The notes under the pieces were generated by a model. It was not told the DNA's origin, searched no databases, and saw nothing but the letters and a program-made list of their open reading frames with translations. Position numbers and translations under genes: made by a program. From IMG/VR virus record IMGVR_UViG_3300028833_000077: a DNA stretch of 64,000 nt; one strand, given 5' to 3'. Positions 6,529 through 38,393 of this stretch are shown piece by piece (positions within the stretch are counted from its first letter, which is position 1; each line of letters begins with the position of its first letter). Source of the DNA: a virus. Lineage: Duplodnaviria > Caudoviricetes.

Positions 6529-6960
6529 TCAGTCCTCCACGAATCTATCAAAGTGAATAATATGCTGATGCTCATCACATTCCACAATCATACAGTCCTC
6601 ATAGGTAGTACTGCATGTCATAGGCCACTGTCTCATTCTGAAGTTAGTACCCTTCTTACAACAGTCAGAGAAGTAATTCACCATGTCATTGAAGGCCTCC
6701 TTAGCCTTCTTATAGTCTGTGGTGGCTATCTTACAGAAGCTACGAATGCTGCTTTCATGCTCTACAAATACTGAGTACACCTTGGGCTTCTTAAAGTACT
6801 CAATGAGGTGTTTACCCTGCATCCTACTTTCATACCCATTATACTGGATATTGTTCTCAAACCATTCAATGAAATCCTTCTCTGAAAGTCTTTCATACTC
6901 TGTGAGACCAGCTATACCTGAACAGTTGGCAATAATCTCTTTGATTCTTTCTTTTGTCAT
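6529..6960 (-). CDS. Hypothetical phage protein
   Basis: 143-aa ORF with ACCCTTTAAA leader. Confidence 0.7.
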   Translation of the reverse strand: MTKERIKEIIANCSGIAGLTEYERLSEKDFIEWFENNIQYNGYESRMQGKHLIEYFKKPKVYSVFVEHESSIRSFCKIATTDYKKAKEAFNDMVNYFSDCCKKGTNFRMRQWPMTCSTTYEDCMIVECDEHQHIIHFDRFVED

Positions 6961-13999: not shown

Positions 14000-14095
14000 A
14001 AAAGGAGGGAGGCTTCACAGCTTCCCTCTTTCAGTTCACATACACATTATTAACTCAAAACTTACTCTTAAGAAATGAACAAAGAAATTTACTCA
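14000..14095 (-). ncRNA. Candidate small RNA 2 (ends approximate)
   Basis: Minus-strand TACATTTG box at 14101-14108, hairpin plus U-run at 14000-14030, no minus-strand ORF. Confidence 0.5.
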
Positions 14096-14152
14096 CGTTG
14101 CAAATGTAGGGAAAATATTCCTAAGTGACAAACTGCTTAGGAAAACACTAAG

Positions 14153-14251
14153 AAAAAAGAGGGCAAGCCCGATCATTGGCTTACCCTCAAAAACATAAAA
14201 CTACAAATCTAAAACAACTAAAACCTATGCAAACAAAGAAACGCTATTCTT
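14153..14251 (-). ncRNA. Candidate small RNA 1 (ends approximate)
   Basis: Minus-strand TATCTTTG box at 14257-14264; terminator stem 14159-14188 with U-run only on the minus strand. Confidence 0.55.
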
Positions 14252-14370
14252 TGCCACAAAGATACTGTTAAGTTTCCACCAGTGCAAGATGCTAAAGATT
14301 TTATTAAGACCCCCCGTTGAAGTTTCCCTATGCTAATCCTCAAAACACTATCAGGTCGCAGCAGCTGCAT

Positions 14371-18189: not shown

Positions 18190-18330
18190 ATCCTAATCTA
18201 TTCTGCTGCAAAGATAAACAATATATTCCACTTCTCCAAATATCTTATAAAGAAAGACAGGAAGATTATATAATCCTCCTGCCTCCTCGATTAACCCCTA
18301 AAACATGAAAAACAACAAACTATGAAAAAA

Positions 18331-19392: not shown

Positions 19393-22300
19393 ATGAATAT
19401 GGAAGAAACCAATTGGAATAAGACAACTGACCTGAAGACTGACCCTAGGGCATGCTGCACTAAGGAGTTCAGTCCCTACAATCAGGTGTATAGGAGTGTT
19501 GTGGTCATCCCTGAGGTTCAGGACAACCACACCATACTCAGGCAGGACATGCTGCCCAGCAAGGACACCAAGTACATCATCAGATATAACATGACCCTCA
19601 ACGGTCTGACTGTTACCATCCCTGAGGACTGCATTCTTGAGTTTGATGGAGGATGCATCACAGGAGGCACTCTGGTAGGCAATGATACCCTTGTACTGAA
19701 TGTGGGTGATGTTGACTGCATCCTTGACAATGTGACCAAGGAAGGCACATGGCGTACCATTGAGTATAACAAGGATGATACTGATGCCATGCTTGCCGAG
19801 AAGGCAGACAAGGCAGACACATACACCAAGGAGGAGGTGGATGGACTCATTGGCACACAAGACACTTCATACGATGATAAGCTTCAGGACTACTACACCA
19901 AGAGGCAGTCAGACATCAAGTATCAGGAGCTGGAGGACATGATTGAGCCTAAGGCAGACAAGGACTCCCTCTCTGATGTGGCTTTCTCTGGAAGATATGA
20001 TGACCTCCTGAACCAGCCTACTATTCCCTCACTGTCAGGATATGCCAAGGAGAGCTGGGTGAATGACAAGATTGAGGACATGCTTGGTGTGGATGCATCG
20101 GGTATATCGGCACTCAAGGCCATTCTTGAGGATGGCAGCACTGCATCAGGGATACTGTCACACATTGCACGTAAGGCAGATTCCAATGATGTGTATAACA
20201 AGACTGAAGTGGATGGGATTAGGGAGGCACTGGAACTCTCAATAAGCAAAAAGGTAGACCAGGCTTCTACTTACAGCAAGCCTGATGTGGACTTGAAGCT
20301 TGGTGCAAAGGCCAATGCATCATCACTCTCTAGAGTGGCTACCTCAGGACTCTATAGTGACCTCATCAATAAACCAACTATACCTACTGTACCCAGAAAA
20401 GTATCAGCTTTCTTCAATGATGCGGGATACCTTACAAAGGCCGATGCAAATACAGTCTCTGATTTGACGTGGACTGCCACTGCCAAGGCAAAGGCATGGA
20501 GTAGGCTGTTCAGGCAAGCAGTGCCAGAACAGGGCTCAAGCTGTATTGTGACCTTAGGCTGTAAGCGAATAGATATGGTGGCAGTATTCTTGGTGAACAC
20601 CAAGTACAATACTGGTGGGCATGTCATCCGACTGGCCTGCAGCAGCAATAATCCTTCGATGGTAGGATATGAAAACGAGCTAGCCTGTAGGGTAGTGTCT
20701 AATAAAGAAGGTAATTCCTACTTTGAGATTCAGGATAACATACTGACTCCCATAGGTCACAATATGACGCAGTGGTTTTGTAGTGTGCTTGAGCTTGGCG
20801 AAGGAGAACTCACTCCATACTATGAATTTACAGATGGTAGTACCATAGAGGATGGCTATATTGAAAGTAATGCTGTAATGGCAGACCAATCTAGTAATAG
20901 CTCTGCGATTGATAATATCTATATTGCAGGTGACCAGTTCTTTGCAAGAAGACAGGATGGCAGTACTATTACTATTGGTAACGCTGCAGTACAGCCTGAT
21001 TGGAATCAAACCAATACTTCTGCTGCTGACTACATCAAGAACAAGCCTATCATACCTTCATTGCCCAACTTGGCAAGAGTGGCAACCACAGGTTCCTACA
21101 ATGACCTTTCAGATAAGCCTGCTGTTCCTTCGTTACCTGCTCTAGCAAGAGTAGCGACTACAGGGTCATACAATGACTTGTCCAATAAGCCTACTATTCC
21201 CACAGTACCTACAAATGTGAGTGCTTTCACCAATGATGCAGGATATCTTACAAGACATCAGGACATCTCAACCAACTACTACTTCCAGCAGTTGGTCAAT
21301 AGAGTCAATGCTTTGGAGACAGCTGTTGCAGAACTCAAGAACTTCTTCTGTAAGTTGACCTTGACTAATGGTACAGTAGTAAATGTTGAAGGTGAGGGTA
21401 CATTGACTGCTGCTATGGTGACTACACCATACAGAACTACAGTTGCAAGTGCAGAGATTGGAACATTATGCACTAGTATTGGTGCTGGTGCATTCGCTTT
21501 CTGTACAAACCTTACAGATGTGAGTGTAGCAAGTAGTGTAACCAGTATAGGAGCAGAAGCTTTTGAAGGTTGCAGCAGTCTAACACACATTAATCTCATT
21601 CTTACAGGAATCACATCTATAGGTAATAATGCCTTTAGTGGTTGTACACAACTTACGTCTGCAGATTTGCCCAATTCTGTGACAAGTGTTGGTACTGGTG
21701 CTTTCAGTGACTGTACAAGCCTTACCCGTTGTGTGCTAGGATTTGGTGTATCAGAGATCAAAGATAGTACATTCCAAGGCTGCTCTAGTCTTTCCAATAT
21801 AACCATACCTAACAATATCACTAAGATAGGAGAAGAAGTCTTTAGTGGCTGTGCTGGTCTTAAGAATGTTACCATTCCGAATAGTATCACATCCATTGGT
21901 AATTCTGCTTTTGAAAACTGTACTGGTCTCATTGGAATAACCTTGAGTACTGCACTGACTACTATAGCTAGCAGTACTTTCAGCGGTTGTACTAAGCTTA
22001 ATAATGTTACGATTCCTGCAAATGTTACAAGTATAGGTACTTCTGCCTTCAGTGACTGCAGCAGTCTGACAAGCATAACTATACCTGACAGTGTGACTTC
22101 TATTGGCAGCAATGCTTTTAAAGGATGCAGTGGTCTCACAAGCATTATACTGCCTGAGAATATTACAAGTATTGGCAGTAGTGCTTTTGCAAATTGCAGC
22201 ACTCTTGTAAGTGTCACCTGTCATCCTTTGAGTGTTCCGACATTAGGGGCAAGTGTCTTTGCTAGTAATGCATCAGGCCGCAAGATATATGTACACCTGA

Positions 22301-23049
22301 GTAGCCTCAATGCCTACAAGACTGCCACCAACTGGAGCAGCTATGCAAGTGACATTGAGTCTATTGAAGAGGATTCCTACTTCTGCAGGATTACATTGAA
22401 CACTGGAGAGACAGCAGAGATCCAAGGTAGTGGTGAGCTTACCTCAGGGGCTTTAGGTGATTATACTAAGGCAAACATTACAAGTGCCCAGATAGGCCCA
22501 TTGTGTACAAGCATAGGTACTAATGTATTCAGCAATGCCTACAGTCTTACAGATGTCTATATACATAATAGTGTCACAAGCATTGGCCAGAATGCCTTTG
22601 AGAGCTGCTCAATACTTTCAAGAGTAAATAGTAGTACAGAAGGTGAGGTCAATATTCCTAGCAGTGTTACAAGTATTGGTGCTAGAGCATTCTATGGATG
22701 TTCTCGTATCACCACCTGTAACTTGGGTGATAGTGTCACCAGTATTGGAAACTACGCCTTCTTTGGTTGTGCCCGTAAGACAAGTGCTAATCCTGATATA
22801 TACTCAGGTATGACAAGTGTAGATATTCCTGCAACAGTGGCTGATATTGGCATGGATGCCTTCAAGGCATGTAATTGTCTTGAAACAGTCATACTAAGAG
22901 CTGCTACACCTCCATATTTGGGTAATTACAATGTTTTTGATAGCAATGCTAGCGGCAGAAAGATATATGTACCTGCAAGTAGCGTAGATACTTATAAGAC
23001 GACTCAGGGATGGAATCCTTATGTGAGTGACATTTATCCAATAGCATAA
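19393..23049 (+). CDS. Fibre/adhesin with BspA-type (LRR_5) leucine-rich repeats
   Basis: Many IP.SVTSIG..AF..C..L repeats; LARVATTGSYNDL and VSAF.NDAGYLT fibre repeats. Confidence 0.85.
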   Translation: MNMEETNWNKTTDLKTDPRACCTKEFSPYNQVYRSVVVIPEVQDNHTILRQDMLPSKDTKYIIRYNMTLNGLTVTIPEDCILEFDGGCITGGTLVGNDTLVLNVGDVDCILDNVTKEGTWRTIEYNKDDTDAMLAEKADKADTYTKEEVDGLIGTQDTSYDDKLQDYYTKRQSDIKYQELEDMIEPKADKDSLSDVAFSGRYDDLLNQPTIPSLSGYAKESWVNDKIEDMLGVDASGISALKAILEDGSTASGILSHIARKADSNDVYNKTEVDGIREALELSISKKVDQASTYSKPDVDLKLGAKANASSLSRVATSGLYSDLINKPTIPTVPRKVSAFFNDAGYLTKADANTVSDLTWTATAKAKAWSRLFRQAVPEQGSSCIVTLGCKRIDMVAVFLVNTKYNTGGHVIRLACSSNNPSMVGYENELACRVVSNKEGNSYFEIQDNILTPIGHNMTQWFCSVLELGEGELTPYYEFTDGSTIEDGYIESNAVMADQSSNSSAIDNIYIAGDQFFARRQDGSTITIGNAAVQPDWNQTNTSAADYIKNKPIIPSLPNLARVATTGSYNDLSDKPAVPSLPALARVATTGSYNDLSNKPTIPTVPTNVSAFTNDAGYLTRHQDISTNYYFQQLVNRVNALETAVAELKNFFCKLTLTNGTVVNVEGEGTLTAAMVTTPYRTTVASAEIGTLCTSIGAGAFAFCTNLTDVSVASSVTSIGAEAFEGCSSLTHINLILTGITSIGNNAFSGCTQLTSADLPNSVTSVGTGAFSDCTSLTRCVLGFGVSEIKDSTFQGCSSLSNITIPNNITKIGEEVFSGCAGLKNVTIPNSITSIGNSAFENCTGLIGITLSTALTTIASSTFSGCTKLNNVTIPANVTSIGTSAFSDCSSLTSITIPDSVTSIGSNAFKGCSGLTSIILPENITSIGSSAFANCSTLVSVTCHPLSVPTLGASVFASNASGRKIYVHLSSLNAYKTATNWSSYASDIESIEEDSYFCRITLNTGETAEIQGSGELTSGALGDYTKANITSAQIGPLCTSIGTNVFSNAYSLTDVYIHNSVTSIGQNAFESCSILSRVNSSTEGEVNIPSSVTSIGARAFYGCSRITTCNLGDSVTSIGNYAFFGCARKTSANPDIYSGMTSVDIPATVADIGMDAFKACNCLETVILRAATPPYLGNYNVFDSNASGRKIYVPASSVDTYKTTQGWNPYVSDIYPIA

Positions 23050-23050
23050 T

Positions 23051-23653
23051 ATGAAGAAGGTACTGATAGGAATCATAGCAGTCTTGGCTCTTATACTTTG
23101 GGGTATGAGCCAGAAGCTTAGGGAGCTTCAGACCAACTATGAGCTTGCATTGGCCAATGTGAAGGCCTATGACAGCAAGCTTGACAATTCAAACAGGAGG
23201 GCCATGTCCCTTCAGTTGACAGTGGAGCAGGTGGAGTACTCAAGAGACTCCCTGCTTCAGGTCCTTGACAAGACAAGGAAGGAACTCAAGGTGAAGGACA
23301 AGAACCTCAAGGCACTGCAGCATGTAGGCACTACATTCACCAAGAGGGACACCATACATTTCAGGGACACCATCTTCAAGAGTCCTGAGGTCAAGCTGGA
23401 CACCCTTATCAAGGATGAGTGGTACTCTCTCAAGGTAGGACTGGAATATCCCAGCACTGTGTCTGTGGTGCCCAGCTTTAAGAGTGACAAGCACATTGTG
23501 GTCTCCATGAAGAAGGAGACGGTCAATCCACCCAAGAAGTTCTTCCTCTTCAGATGGTTCCAGAAGCGGCACAGTGTCCTTCATGTGGATGTACTGGAGA
23601 ACAATCCGTACATCCAGGAACAGAAGAGCACCTATGTGGAGATAGTGAAATGA
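23051..23653 (+). CDS. Spanin-like lysis accessory protein
   Basis: N-terminal TM, coiled coil, DT-rich C-terminus. Confidence 0.55.
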   Translation: MKKVLIGIIAVLALILWGMSQKLRELQTNYELALANVKAYDSKLDNSNRRAMSLQLTVEQVEYSRDSLLQVLDKTRKELKVKDKNLKALQHVGTTFTKRDTIHFRDTIFKSPEVKLDTLIKDEWYSLKVGLEYPSTVSVVPSFKSDKHIVVSMKKETVNPPKKFFLFRWFQKRHSVLHVDVLENNPYIQEQKSTYVEIVK

Positions 23654-23924
23654 ATGTCATGACCATCATATATGCTGTCCTGTTCTACTTCATAGTAGGC
23701 ATCTTGACTACACTGACTTTCAAGAGGTATGGGGGAGGGTACATACTGGCAGGATGGCTGTGGCCTCTGACATGGGCACTGATGGTGCTCCTCGTTGTAG
23801 AGAAGTTCATAAAAAGGTTTATTATTCATACGCTTTAATATATTTAGGTTCGTTTCTTAGACCCTGTCTGTGAAGATCGGAAAGTAACTTTTTTCCATAA
23901 CGATGACTTGAGAATTTTGTTTTT

Positions 23925-25070
23925 TCATTGTTTTCCCCCACCTGTCGAGAGATAGCTGGGGGTTTTTGATATAGCATCTACCACAGTCTCATCAAGCAGC
24001 TTGGCATACACAGCTTCTGTAATCCTTGTGGATGAATGCCCGCATATCCTTGAAACTATCTTCATGTCCACCCCTTCATTGAGCAACATGGTGGCTCCAG
24101 TGTGCCTTGCCCAATGCGTGCTCACAGGCTTGTCTATGCCTGCTGCCTGTGCAACAACCTTGAGATACTCATTGTACTTCACATTGGAAATGATGGGCAG
24201 CTTGTTCCCATACTTCTCCAACACCTCAAGAGCCTTATGGTGCATGGGTATGGTGAAGGGCTTGGCAGTCTTGATCCTGCTTCCCATGTAGACCTTCATG
24301 CCCTTGACAGTGCTGATGCCTCCCACATCAAAGTCCTTGAGGTCTGTGTAGCTCAGGCAGGTGTATGTCTGAAACACAAATACATCCCTGACTCTCTCAA
24401 GACTCTTGGTGGGCAGCTTCACATCCATCAGATGCCTGAACTCCTCTGGAGTGAGGTACTTCTCTATGCCTCTGCCTTGCTTGTTCCTGTCTATGGAGAG
24501 TCTGCTGTAGGGGTTCCTCTGCATAAGTCCTTCCTCTATGGCATCCCTGATGAAGGAGTTGAGGAACCTGTGGTAATTGTTCCACTTGGAGTAGGGCTCC
24601 ATCCCCTTGGCAGTCAAATACTCATCATACTTGATGATGTTCTCCTCAGTAATAGCCTCCACCTCCACGATCCCTCCCCACTCTGAGAAGAGCCTTATGA
24701 ACCTGTCATACCTCTCTTGGGTGTCCTTCTCCTTGCCATACTTCCTCACCCTTGCCCTTGCCTTGCAGAAGTCTATGAAGGATGTACCCTTGGGCTTGAG
24801 CCTCTCATTGAGTGTGTCAAGACTACCAGAGGCCAATGCCTCCCTGACCCTTACAAGAAGATCATTGAGTATCTGGCTCAACTGCATGGCATCAGGGCAG
24901 TTGACGATGCAGCCATTCCTCCATTGGTTGGGATAGAGTGATATTCCTGTGGAGATGAACTTGCACTTTCCCTTCAGTGACACCCTGAGTTCCAATGCAG
25001 CCTTTCTCTTCTGTGTGGCTGTTTTCCTCCTGTCATATATGAATGTTATCTTGGGCTGTTTGTTAATCAT
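23925..25070 (-). CDS. int: Tyrosine integrase (Bacteroidetes type: arm-binding, SAM and catalytic domains)
   Basis: H.ARHT, GHS..T..Y motifs, RD.F.F..YT.L.Y.D, N-terminal ELRVS...ISTGI. Confidence 0.9.
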   Translation of the reverse strand: MINKQPKITFIYDRRKTATQKRKAALELRVSLKGKCKFISTGISLYPNQWRNGCIVNCPDAMQLSQILNDLLVRVREALASGSLDTLNERLKPKGTSFIDFCKARARVRKYGKEKDTQERYDRFIRLFSEWGGIVEVEAITEENIIKYDEYLTAKGMEPYSKWNNYHRFLNSFIRDAIEEGLMQRNPYSRLSIDRNKQGRGIEKYLTPEEFRHLMDVKLPTKSLERVRDVFVFQTYTCLSYTDLKDFDVGGISTVKGMKVYMGSRIKTAKPFTIPMHHKALEVLEKYGNKLPIISNVKYNEYLKVVAQAAGIDKPVSTHWARHTGATMLLNEGVDMKIVSRICGHSSTRITEAVYAKLLDETVVDAISKTPSYLSTGGGKQ

Positions 25071-25330
25071 CCTAAATAAAGTTTAATTATTTGTTAATGG
25101 GTGGTTTTAGTATACAAAGGTGTACAACTTTCTTAAGAGGGGTGTACAGAATTTGTATAGTTTTCAATGTGATGTGTACAGTATTTGTATAGTGTTCTAC
25201 CCTCCCAGCTGAGGGGACTGTAAGCAAAGAATCTTCAAGAGGCAGCTGTCTCCAGCTGTATATAATAAGAGTATCAGGAAGCAGACTGATTTGTCATAAC
25301 TCCCTGATACTGTGAATTCAAGCCCCTAAG

Positions 25331-25402
25331 TAGTCGATAGGGGAATCGAACCCCTATGCCAAGATTGAGAATCTTGTATCCTAACCATTAGATGAATCGA
25401 CC
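25331..25402 (-). tRNA. tRNA-Glu (CTC)
   Basis: GGTCGAT/ATCGACT acceptor stem, CAAGA-TTCTCAA-TCTTG anticodon arm, GGTTCGATTCC T-arm. Confidence 0.93.
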
Positions 25403-25433
25403 GCGCTGCATTCTCTTGGAGTAATACCCCCGG

Positions 25434-25452
25434 TTGCGGAAGGAGGGGGATT
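25434..25452 (-). mobile_element. Candidate attP core: tRNA-Ser-like 3' fragment AATCCCCCTCCTTCCGCAA
   Basis: T-arm 3' half plus acceptor strand with no 5' half; lies between arm-type repeats beside the integrase. Confidence 0.55.
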
Positions 25453-25561
25453 ATTACCTACCAGCCATGACTCTTGCCTAATTCTCAGTCAATCAGGGAG
25501 ATGGAGTCTTCTGCTATGGAGCCTTAGTCATCATGTGTACAGAATATGTATAGTTTTAACC

Positions 25562-34488: not shown

Positions 34489-36129
34489 ATGAGCAATGTA
34501 ATTACAAAGGAATGGATGGATGCCCATGATGCAGTGGTTCAGGGCAAGCTCCAGCCTCTAGCAGATGCAGCAGTGGTAAAGACCCTTTCGTCTGCTCCTA
34601 CAGAGGCAACATTGACCTATATGATAGGTACGGAAACACATAATTTCAAGATTGGTGACGAGGCTAGGGTAGCAGACAGTGCTTCTGGTACAGGCTATGT
34701 CTACTACAAGCTGTATGACATCAACAATGGTGCAGCTGTATGGAATAAGCTTGGCAGTGAAAGCAGTGGTGCACTCTTGGCAGCTATCAGGATAAGCCTT
34801 CAAGCTATTGTCAACGGCAATGTGACGGATGGTACAGACCTTAATGGTGTCGCGGTGTCAGTACAGAATGTGACAGACAATGTGTCTGCTGGTGTCAAGG
34901 CATGGGCAGGCAATGAGCTAGTGTTTGACAACCTTGCTCCCATGAAGCAGTATACAGTATCAGTAGCTGCTGTCAGTGGGTATGATACTCCTTCAAGCTA
35001 TACTATCAATAGTCTAGATCTCGGACAGACAGCTTCTCATACTTTCCAGTATACAGCAGACGGATATACTGTGTCCATCACCTCCAATCAAGGGGCTACA
35101 GATGCAGGAATATCTTCTGGTCGGCTGATATATAATGGCACGAGCTATGCCAATGAGGGCTCCTTTAAAGTTCCTACAGACACAAATGTGACCGCTAGTG
35201 AACTGAGTGCATCTGCCTTGACGGGCTATGCATCAGCTATTACTGTGAACAATAAGACCATCTCGCTTGTATACTCTACTGAGATTCTTACGGTAACCAT
35301 TACAAAGAGTGAGGGAGATGGTGACATTTCAAGCATGAATGTTACAGTAAAGGATTCAAACAATACGGTCTTAGGCACCTTATCCGACGGACAGACCTTG
35401 AAGATAGCCACAGGCACATCCTATACAGCAACAGCATCGGAGGCACCCGAAGGATACAAGACTCCTGCAGCCCAGACGGCAAGTGCCTCCCAGACGGCAA
35501 GGACTATGAGCTTTGAATACACAGTAAAACCAGATGGGATAGACATGGGTAATGGTGTGCTTTGGGCTACCAGTAATCTGACTAAGGAAGCTAACGGAAC
35601 TTATAAGTTAGCAGATAATCCTTGGGACTATGGAGCATACTTCTCATGGGGAGATACGGAAGGACATGATGTAGCAGGCCAGAATGAGGGCTATGATTTC
35701 TCTAATAGCAACTATAATAATGGTGCCTCAGGTAGTGGCCATAATCTGACTGCAAGTTTCAGTTCAGGTAATGTTACATATGATGCAGCAAGGGCCAAGC
35801 TTGGTGATTCATGGAGAATACCTACTAAGGACGAGTGTAATTGGCTGCTGAATCCCAGCAACTGCACGAATGAGTGGGTAACCAACTATGAGGGCAGCAG
35901 TGTTGCAGGTAGGCTGTTTACGAGTAAGGTGAATGGGAATAAGCTCTTCTTCCCAGCTGCAGGTTACTACTATGGTACTTCTCTCAGCCTTAGTGGTACC
36001 AATGGTTACTATTGGTCAACTGAGTTCAACAATAGTTCTAATGCCTATTGCATGAGCTTCTATAGTTCTAATTGCGACATGAACGGTAACTACAGGTACT
36101 GTGGTCACTGTGTTCGTCCTGTTCAGTAA
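34489..36129 (+). CDS. DGR target protein (receptor-binding fibre with C-type-lectin-like C-terminal domain)
   Basis: WA..NL, YFSWG, WRIPT, FFPAAG, YYWS motifs; VR at the 3' end. Confidence 0.9.
   Translation: MSNVITKEWMDAHDAVVQGKLQPLADAAVVKTLSSAPTEATLTYMIGTETHNFKIGDEARVADSASGTGYVYYKLYDINNGAAVWNKLGSESSGALLAAIRISLQAIVNGNVTDGTDLNGVAVSVQNVTDNVSAGVKAWAGNELVFDNLAPMKQYTVSVAAVSGYDTPSSYTINSLDLGQTASHTFQYTADGYTVSITSNQGATDAGISSGRLIYNGTSYANEGSFKVPTDTNVTASELSASALTGYASAITVNNKTISLVYSTEILTVTITKSEGDGDISSMNVTVKDSNNTVLGTLSDGQTLKIATGTSYTATASEAPEGYKTPAAQTASASQTARTMSFEYTVKPDGIDMGNGVLWATSNLTKEANGTYKLADNPWDYGAYFSWGDTEGHDVAGQNEGYDFSNSNYNNGASGSGHNLTASFSSGNVTYDAARAKLGDSWRIPTKDECNWLLNPSNCTNEWVTNYEGSSVAGRLFTSKVNGNKLFFPAAGYYYGTSLSLSGTNGYYWSTEFNNSSNAYCMSFYSSNCDMNGNYRYCGHCVRPVQ
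35958..36123 (+). repeat. DGR variable repeat (VR)
   Basis: 166-bp match to TR; 18 mismatches, all at TR adenines. Confidence 0.95.
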
Positions 36130-36160
36130 CTTGTCTACCAGAAGAACAAAAGTACTCAGA

Positions 36161-36216
36161 CTCTCTTGTCCCTGTCACCGAAGCCCTTCCAAGGGCTGAG
36201 AGAAGGGGACGGAGAG
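36161..36216 (+). promoter_or_regulatory. DGR target-recognition hairpin downstream of VR
   Basis: AGCCCTT-CC-AAGGGCT at 36182-36197 inside a longer imperfect stem. Confidence 0.6.
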
Positions 36217-36241
36217 GCTGGATTTAAAAAGATAATATTGT

Positions 36242-36817
36242 ATGGGTAAAATATCTGAAATCATCAGCATAGAAACTCAAAGAGAGGATCTTGCTGCCAT
36301 GCAAAAAATTCATTTGTGGAAAGAGGGCAGCTTCTTTAGAGCCTACAATTGGAGTGCTTGGCTTATTGTAAATTACTGCTATACTGAAGAGATAAGGAAC
36401 AAGCAGGTGGATCGTAAGCCCCTCAGCGTTACCAAGAGACGCTTTAAGAGTGGGGACTCTACTTACTGTCAGATTGGGTTTCCTGTCAGTTCCCTGAAGA
36501 AATTCATGCCCTCAGTCAGTCTGTTTAATCCTATAGATGACAATCATACAGAGGCTACTTTGGATTTGCAGGAAGCATGGGCTGACCAGACGATAGATAC
36601 ACTAAAAGCATCTTATAAAGCTTGGGAGGATAGCTTGGAGATTGAAGACAAGCCACAGAAGACAAATGATAGGGAGACAGATGTCTTCAGCTCTTCTCCT
36701 TTAAGGATAATGCAGATAGTATCTCAGATATTGAGCTACCCTATAGAAAGGAAGTCCCCTATAGAGAATACAGAGTTTATCAGCAGACTGAAACAACAAC
36801 TGGCTGCTGTGTTTTAA
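36242..36817 (+). CDS. DGR accessory protein, MutS-N-like (MSL)
   Basis: IHLWKEGSFFRAYNWSAW...IGFP; lies between target and TR. Confidence 0.7.
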   Translation: MGKISEIISIETQREDLAAMQKIHLWKEGSFFRAYNWSAWLIVNYCYTEEIRNKQVDRKPLSVTKRRFKSGDSTYCQIGFPVSSLKKFMPSVSLFNPIDDNHTEATLDLQEAWADQTIDTLKASYKAWEDSLEIEDKPQKTNDRETDVFSSSPLRIMQIVSQILSYPIERKSPIENTEFISRLKQQLAAVF

Positions 36818-36969
36818 TATTTTTTGAATAAAGCAGGCTGTAGTAGCAGATATCGGACAAGTTCACAGGCTGACCGTCCTGCATCTGTCAGGTGTGGGAA
36901 AAACAAAGTACACTTGATGGTTTTGCATTTGGCAATCCCTTCTTTTAGTCATATTAGGTGTCAGTCGGT

Positions 36970-37135
36970 TGCAGGTAACTACAATGGAACTTCTCTCAAC
37001 AATAGTGGTACCAATGGTAACTATTGGTCAACTGAGTTCAACAATAGTTCTAATGCCTATTACATGAACTTCAATAGTTCTAATTGCAACATGAACAATA
37101 ACAACAGGAACTATGGTAACAGTGTTCGTCCTGTT
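36970..37135 (+). ncRNA. DGR template repeat (TR)
   Basis: AAC/AAT-rich copy of VR just upstream of the RT gene. Confidence 0.95.
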
Positions 37136-37178
37136 TTAGCACTTATCTGATGTCTTGCCTCGGCTATAAAAGAACGAC

Positions 37179-38393
37179 ATGACATTTCATTTAACAAAAG
37201 ACCAGTTGAAGAAAGACTTGTATGTTGCTTACTATGATGCACGAAAACACAAGTCCCATAAGCCTTATGTCAAATATTTTGAAGCAGACCTTACCACAGA
37301 ATTAGATACACTCTGCAATGAACTGTGGAACAGGACTTATACAGCCCAGCCCTCAAAGTGCTTTATAATAGACTATCCTAAAAAACGGGAAGTATTTGCA
37401 GCCCGTTTCCGTGATAGAATTGTACACCATCTCTTATTCAATTACATCCATGCTATGCTGGAAAGGACTTTTATTAGGGACAGTTATAGCTGTATCAAGG
37501 GCAGAGGCACCCATGACGGTATAAGAAGACTCTATAAGCACATTAAGCAGGAAAGCCAGAATTATACAGTACCCTGTTATATCATGAAACTAGACATACG
37601 GGGATATTTTATGCACATTAACCGTAGTAAGCTTTTGCAGATAGCCCTCAAATCTTTAAGAGAGATGGGTGAACATAAAATCGGGAAGACAGGCTATAAC
37701 GGACAGGTATTTGGTAAAGGCATACTGTGGAAAGAAGCTGTTGATATGGGCTTTGTCAGCTGGCTGACAGAAAAGATTATCATGCTAAATCCTAAGACCT
37801 GGTGTGAGATGGCTGGCAGCATAGAGGACTGGAAAGGCTTGGATAGGAGTAAAAGTCTCTTTTACACAAAGGAGGGCTGCGGACTTCCTATTGGCAATTT
37901 AACAAGCCAACTGTTCAGTAATGTCTATCTGAATGTCTTGGATCAGTTTATGAAAAGAGTACTCAAGTGCCGGCATTACGGAAGGTATGTGGATGACTTT
38001 TATATTGTGAATTGTGATAGGAAATGGCTGCTTGGGCTGGTTGGAAGGATTGAGAATTTTCTTGCAGATAATCTTGAATTGAAGCTACACAGAGGCAAAC
38101 TTATACTACGTAGTGTACAGACAGGTATAGAGTTCTTGGGTGCTTTTTTAAAGCCATACAGGAAGTATTTTGCCAACAGTTCTCTTAGACGGGTATGCCA
38201 GAGACTTTCAGAAATCAGACATAGTGATGCGGAGACTTCTTGGAGAACCGTAAATTCCTATCTTGGAATCATGGGCCATTATTCTACCTTCTACTTAAGG
38301 TGGAGGCTGTTCATGAGGTGTTGCTATCTTAGAATAGCACCAATAGAAGTAGGCTCATCCAAGATGTTAAGACCATATTGTATAAATGTTTAA
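37179..38393 (+). CDS. DGR reverse transcriptase
   Basis: RDRIVH, KLDIRGYF, GLPIGNLTSQ, RYVDDF, FLG. Confidence 0.95.
   Translation: MTFHLTKDQLKKDLYVAYYDARKHKSHKPYVKYFEADLTTELDTLCNELWNRTYTAQPSKCFIIDYPKKREVFAARFRDRIVHHLLFNYIHAMLERTFIRDSYSCIKGRGTHDGIRRLYKHIKQESQNYTVPCYIMKLDIRGYFMHINRSKLLQIALKSLREMGEHKIGKTGYNGQVFGKGILWKEAVDMGFVSWLTEKIIMLNPKTWCEMAGSIEDWKGLDRSKSLFYTKEGCGLPIGNLTSQLFSNVYLNVLDQFMKRVLKCRHYGRYVDDFYIVNCDRKWLLGLVGRIENFLADNLELKLHRGKLILRSVQTGIEFLGAFLKPYRKYFANSSLRRVCQRLSEIRHSDAETSWRTVNSYLGIMGHYSTFYLRWRLFMRCCYLRIAPIEVGSSKMLRPYCINV

Follow-up and report, generated by a model that had tools for sequence, protein, structure and literature searches.

Our analysis indicates that the interval described here, part of a 64,000-nt stretch of viral DNA that was analysed as a whole (the window), is the 3' end of a lysis-associated rightward operon where it meets the 3' end of a leftward integrase gene, and that its working part is a conserved, predicted intrinsic terminator, a reading to which we give a probability of about 0.8. 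The terminator is ordinary in kind and unusually well conserved at a convergent junction, and, together with the relic of a second copy, this is the part of which we are certain. Among the gene products of the window are the phage portal, large terminase and major head proteins as well as the reverse transcriptase of a diversity-generating retroelement, and the features on which the reading turns are as follows.

19393-23049, plus strand: gene for a BspA-type LRR protein of 1218 aa, at the head of the rightward operon
23051-23653, plus strand: DUF6549 gene, penultimate in the operon (Pfam PF20186, phrog_14010)
23650-23838, plus strand: gene for a 62-aa membrane protein, last in the operon (from its sequence and its homologues in relatives)
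23935-23967, plus strand: predicted Rho-independent terminator of the operon, a 28-nt hairpin with a GAGA loop followed by T5
23925-25070, minus strand: gene for a tyrosine integrase with an arm-binding domain (Pfam PF00589, PF13102, PF17293; phrog_1)

The integrase gene converges on the operon formed by the LRR, DUF6549 and 62-aa genes, and its stop codon, TGA, lies at 23925-23927 on the minus strand. By BLAST, the DUF6549 gene matches genes annotated as "lysis regulatory protein" in GenBank records of cultured crAss-like phages, and a BLAST of 23000-25500 against phage GenBank records yielded only short matches, within the DUF6549 gene and a tRNA. Searches of viral, metagenome and genome collections gave integrase relatives from rumen viral contigs and Prevotella MAGs, the nearest of them at 56-67% identity. 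The 62-aa frame opens within the DUF6549 stop, the two codons overlapping as ATGA; because homologues (29-35% identity) with an invariant LWP motif occupy the same place in three relatives (L034, L044 and L061), it is, judging from this comparison, a real gene. The original prediction had taken the stretch downstream as a 3'-UTR with three CAT trinucleotides serving as antisense seeds, and the letters it quoted are present as described. It was right that the stretch is the untranslated 3' end of the operon, but the first CAT lies inside the 62-aa reading frame. Since this CAT is coding and the integrase reaches through the hairpin to 23925, the true intergenic gap is confined to 23839-23924.

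The terminator hairpin (23935-23962) begins 96 nt past the stop codon of the 62-aa gene, has a predicted folding energy of -17.7 kcal/mol and is followed by T5 at 23963-23967. It is one-directional, in that the other strand has no U-run and no A-run precedes the hairpin. The plus-strand fold of the region is better than those of all 200 shuffled sequences (z = -2.54), and the minus-strand fold shows no significant structure relative to shuffles (z = -1.34). A simple terminator scan missed this hairpin on account of its loop limit, and it was detected by our own hairpin scan; a search of IMG/VR for the exact hairpin sequence gave no match. Together with its U5 tract, the hairpin would end the operon transcripts and stop them from running antisense through the integrase gene.

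Related loci were gathered both through the integrase and through a DUF6549 protein alignment. At least 25 distinct related rumen crAss-like contigs (including L001/2, L022, L025 and L033-L068) share a layout that consists of a DUF6549 gene, a T-rich spacer of 20-70 nt, a hairpin with a T-run and a convergent integrase stop, with a small membrane-protein (TM) gene following DUF6549 in four cases. MAFFT applied to all of the hairpins mixed two stem registers, and the GUGA class alone was used for modelling: eleven hairpins, aligned by sequence only and with the window excluded. In this alignment 91.7% of the cells are paired and eight of the eleven base pairs show changes on both sides, values reached by none of 500 shuffles, with slid registers pairing to only 40-55%. 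Hardly any variation is seen in the 13-nt apex around GUGA, and the covariation falls in the outer stem. These observations indicate an inherited terminator, with the same hairpin at the same junction across many related rumen crAss-like phages, and make this a clean case of a phage terminator long kept at a convergent gene junction.

A covariance model (R1) built from the same eleven hairpins, again leaving the window out, was searched over the whole 64 kb with filters off. Its top two matches were the terminator (23929-23971; 21.6 bits, E = 7e-4, full model) and a second site at 23863-23880 (19 bits, E = 0.005, covering only model positions 11-28, which form the apex). At the same time, two Prevotellaceae MAGs contain generic terminators that R1 scores at 24-29 bits, above the 21.6 bits of the window hairpin, and the homology of that hairpin to the DUF6549-operon terminator family would therefore rest on its position, and on the relic copy described below, and not on its score.

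In one Prevotellaceae MAG, a host hairpin very like the window terminator, with a GUGA loop (L115:1421-1541), has two T-run-plus-CAT motifs within the preceding 80 nt. From our reading of ORF translations it lies between UmuD/UmuC-like and GIY-YIG/T5orf172-like genes and is not a DUF6549/integrase locus.

The terminator had been predicted to overlap the 3' end of the integrase gene, and indeed it does, but the relationship goes further than overlap: the terminator hairpin is translated as part of the final 13 integrase codons, giving a 43-nt overlap with the operon transcripts. A comparison of C-termini showed that in most related loci the integrase stop lies inside the T-run itself, and for this reason we regard the 13-residue C-terminal extension in the window as, in all probability, a lineage-specific by-product of losing the T-run stop. 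The integrase reads into or through the hairpin in the window and in L022, L036, L058 and L035, the relatives' read-throughs being separate and of differing lengths. In the window, loss of the usual T-run stop would have led to translation of the hairpin, with the new stop falling on the third CAT; the integrase may thus have grown a tail by translating across a terminator.

Between the 62-aa gene and the terminator, and at the end of that gene, the following features can be placed.

23839-23934, plus strand: 3' trailer of the rightward operon, 96 nt, T-rich and C-poor (composition and motif statistics)
23827-23829, plus strand: CAT#1, codon His60 of the 62-aa gene
23863-23880 (approximately), plus strand: weak GUGA-capped hairpin, TCT-GTGA-AGA (R1 apex match; 15-mer shared with L025)
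23896-23898, plus strand: CAT#2, within the trailer
23926-23928, plus strand: CAT#3, within the trailer, sharing two bases with the integrase stop TGA
23899-23932, plus strand: predicted internal hairpin pairing CAT#3 with an upstream GAUGA (minimum-energy fold and pair probabilities)
23857-23928, minus strand: 23-codon frame, judged non-coding, with the CAT#3 complement as its start codon and the CAT#2 complement further on in the same frame

Both of the hairpins that had been pointed out originally, the GAGA-loop hairpin of the terminator and the GUGA-capped one, are present, but the second is weak, with six pairs and one mismatch, only four of those pairs in the minimum-energy fold, and neither an outer stem nor a U-tail. 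It matches the apex of the L025 terminator exactly over 15 nt. It lies 55 nt upstream of the intact terminator, and the intervening sequence (from about 23895) resembles the spacer of L064. Because the R1 match is confined to the apex and the 15-mer is exact, we read the GUGA hairpin as the decayed apex of a second terminator copy, probably left behind by recombination when the small membrane-protein gene was gained or exchanged.

The window hairpin had also been assigned to the same family as a hairpin that caps a putative small RNA at 14000-14030, an assignment that our model does not support. R1 recovers the terminator in full and the GUGA hairpin by its relic apex only, but misses the 14005-14028 hairpin even at E = 10 with filters off. 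That hairpin has the reversed stem polarity, with a purine-rich 5' arm, and has only the apex octamer in common with the others; at 14013 the octamer lies on the opposite DNA strand, and it occurs seven times in the window, mostly inside genes, against 1.85 expected. A three-seed small RNA of a "14000 family" is not established, and the proposal is wrong in its details.

Two observations are not accounted for by a plain terminator, namely the conservation of the apex at the level of sequence while the outer stem covaries, and the enrichment of U-runs followed by CAU in the trailers. CAT in a U-rich context had been predicted to be more frequent than in shuffled DNA, and this holds: with a T-run defined as at least six T within the 8 nt before CAT, the region has three such motifs in 156 nt, compared with 0.12 in dinucleotide shuffles, and none of 2000 shuffles reached three. 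Among the relatives (rule: five of eight T, within 56 nt before the stem), 14 of 25 trailers contain the motif against 3.85 +/- 1.6 expected, a value reached in none of 1000 shuffles; as the 25 loci are related, these counts overstate independence, though the spacers are otherwise unalignable. By our own count the motif is present in about 12 of 19 sequence-distinct trailers, with about 7 of the 19 having no CAT at all. The over-represented trailer words are CATAA, TCATA, TTTAGG, TTTCAT and TTTGTT. The claim that the reverse complements look like gene starts also stands: scored with a start-site matrix built from 89 gene starts in the window, the complements of CAT#1, CAT#2 and CAT#3 rank at percentiles 99.7, 94.7 and 93.9 among non-start ATGs, in the range of true starts. 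A uniform transcription-linked mutation bias was considered as the source of the T-rich trailers and fails, as the leaders that share the transcribed strand with these trailers are A-rich. The U-rich, CAU-bearing, start-mirroring pattern before terminators is real in this phage group, and the terminator by itself does not account for it. In the trailer at L041:2101-2140, an 18-nt unit containing the T-run and CAT is duplicated in tandem, and so the motif can multiply by local duplication.

Trailers of this composition are not restricted to the integrase junction. Three further T-rich, C-poor trailers precede terminators in the window, all on the minus strand (14249-14159, about 14092-14005 and 18330-18253), and in a 140.5-kb sample of Prevotella MAG DNA, with 22 terminator-like hairpins, no hairpin was preceded by a trailer with T of at least 0.5 and C of at most 0.1. 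The trailer at 23839-23934 belongs to a phage-specific, U-rich, C-poor class that mirrors the A-rich start regions of the phage.

Within 14000-14262 on the minus strand there are two back-to-back units devoid of ORFs (about 14262-14153 and 14104-14000), each made up of an exact match to TAnnTTTG (about 14262-14255 and 14104-14097), then a T-rich, CAT-containing body and an intrinsic terminator (14188-14159, dG -20.2; 14028-14005, dG -13.7). From their layout these units look like stand-alone small RNA genes. At 18245-18330 (minus strand), the 3' trailer of a DUF5675 gene contains two T-run-plus-CAT motifs followed by an 11-bp terminator hairpin, and its CATs (in 18253-18330) are predicted to be open, with unpaired probabilities of 0.84-0.87. 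A promoter box and the start of a gene for a 1272-aa lysozyme-domain protein follow directly, and the DUF5675 trailer could pair with the leader of that gene on read-through transcripts.

The best-surviving alternative takes the trailer itself, alone or processed from the operon mRNA, to be a 3'-UTR-derived regulatory RNA in which U-runs and CAU block translation starts of the phage or of its host by pairing with the A-rich leader, the AUG and the AAA-rich first codons. Such an RNA would be one of a phage-wide set with the 14000-14262 units and the 18253-18330 trailer, and it is compatible with the terminator. We hold this possibility only tentatively and think it on balance unlikely. The enrichment of U-run plus CAT in the window and its relatives, the over-represented words CATAA, TTTCAT and TTTAGG, the start-like scores of the CAT complements, and T-rich trailers beside A-rich leaders on the same strand, which a uniform bias would not produce, speak for this reading, as do the two ORF-less units with box, T-rich CAT body and terminator and the absence of the trailer type from the 140.5 kb of host-type DNA sampled. 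There is also a precedent in the crAss-like phage phi14:2, which produces abundant non-coding RNAs of unknown role (bioRxiv 10.1101/2020.03.07.982082).

On the other hand, the seeds themselves do not hold up as a set of three. The CATs are there, at 23827, 23896 and 23926, but the first encodes a histidine, and the fold prediction places the two non-coding CATs in helices, the probability of being unpaired coming to 0.23 around CAT#2, 0.21 around CAT#3 and 0.01 at CAT#3 itself; the internal hairpin that holds CAT#3 was not seen in relatives. A trans-acting function, for which target prediction had been proposed as a check, found no support there: duplexes with the 89 start regions of the window were no better than those of shuffled trailers, the minimum energy being as low in 62 of 100 shuffles and the mean lower in 97 of 100. 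The best start matches (minus-strand genes at 6960 and 1502) carry two to three mismatches in 16 positions, the matches in the L041 record are to the trailer itself only, and those in the complete L064 genome resemble the generic start consensus, so that neither record offered anything specific. The CAT#2 segment can pair over 11 nt, including one G-U, with the beginning of the first gene of the operon (19393/19399), a match that by our own estimate is about what chance gives for this search space and that was rejected. The regulatory reading is further weakened by the sequence-distinct trailers that have no CAT and by the lack of an exact TAnnTTTG promoter box in 23700-23934, where the trailer has only 7-of-8 matches; among relatives, the spacing from box to CAT is 0-10 nt. 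Rfam membership, raised originally as a check, was not found either: the sole match in 23600-24100 is BTnc201, at chance level (14.8 bits against a threshold of 105), and in the whole window only the tRNA reaches its gathering threshold.

A broader version of the regulatory reading, which we advance with equal reserve and consider rather doubtful, is that rumen crAss-like phages carry U-rich, C-poor RNA segments, mirrors of their start sites, before terminators, some of them trailing lysis and endolysin genes at the 3' side and others forming independent units that run from promoter to terminator. They might anneal to A-rich Bacteroidota starts that have no Shine-Dalgarno sequence and act as broad dampers of translation or as insulators against read-through, with 23839-23934 as one member, kept at the DUF6549-integrase junction in most related phages. 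Bacteroidota initiate translation without being led by Shine-Dalgarno sequences, and such segments, if functional, would offer a simple RNA route to translation control in this phylum. The papers on crAss-like phages consulted for this analysis describe no phage RNA regulator.

Less probable still, and in our view unlikely, is that the junction serves for cis-antisense control of the integrase, with operon transcripts that end at 23967 pairing with the 3' part of the integrase mRNA (its last 43 nt and its 3' trailer) and destabilising it during late transcription, loosely as in lambda sib. The geometry is suggestive: the genes converge and physically overlap the terminator, and, because scans found no minus-strand terminator 3' of the integrase gene, the integrase mRNA should extend across the trailer. 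But in most relatives the overlap amounts to the stop codon and the T-run only, the 43 nt being lineage-specific, and the minus strand lacks significant structure.

We consider it very improbable that the CAT complements initiate small genes lying on the minus strand past the end of the integrase gene. The 23-codon frame overlaps the integrase stop in an ATGA, its start context is start-like, and an ATG with an A-run occurs at the same place in many relatives, but the frames found there (2, 4, 5, 13, 19, 23, 25, 29, 35 and 77 codons) have no common sequence, several of them run antisense through the DUF6549 gene, and the motif is also found before terminators with no upstream gene able to couple. 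A conserved small minus-strand gene was rejected, as the corresponding frames in relatives are unrelated.

Least credible of all is that the inverted repeat at 23935-23962, which does adjoin the integrase gene, is the attP core for that integrase and not an RNA signal; we rejected it given that the T-run is always one-sided, that the stems covary between phages with no matching to a host site, that the hairpin also follows DUF6549 genes in the L042-L052 group, where a motif check detected no convergent integrase, and that repeats resembling arm-type sites, along with a tRNA, are found upstream of the integrase, at the opposite end of its gene (25142-25558). There, close upstream of the integrase gene, a complete tRNA-Glu(CTC) gene on the minus strand (25330-25402; Rfam, 59.6 bits), the only tRNA that ARAGORN and Rfam report, is flanked by three direct repeats of about 22 nt (starting at 25142, 25175 and 25536), and the 25100-25560 region is likely to be the attP with its arm-type sites.

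When compared with known systems, the window junction most resembles the intrinsic terminators of convergent genes, with a GC-rich hairpin, a GNRA tetraloop, a U-run and an operon that ends at a convergent 3' end; similar hairpins, several with GNRA loops, are found in Prevotellaceae MAG DNA. It differs from usual intrinsic terminators in its conservation between phages that share only about 50-60% identity in the flanking proteins and in having, as a family, a constant apex on a covarying outer stem, and it differs from those usual at convergent genes in being translated as an integrase tail and in its one-directional design with no A-run before it. Should the regulatory reading hold, the trailer would resemble the GibS-type small RNAs of Bacteroides thetaiotaomicron in having a start-complementary segment before its own terminator, a layout that it would also share with the 3'-UTR-derived small RNAs of enterobacteria. 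Unlike these, the trailer complements a generic start consensus and not one mRNA, has its motifs predicted to be paired and belongs to no Rfam family.

In phage lambda, sib and tI are the elements of int retroregulation, and in the window, too, an integrase gene carries at its 3' end a structured RNA signal that could couple integrase expression to other transcription. Unlike sib, however, the window signal terminates the opposite strand, the attachment site appears to be upstream of the integrase and not between gene and signal, and the integrase strand shows no evident RNase III-type structure.

Elsewhere in the window, the diversity-generating retroelement (34489-38393) contains a pair of 179-nt repeats, at 35958-36136 and 36970-37148, that are 87% identical, and the reverse transcriptase gene (37179-38393) adjoins this repeat pair.
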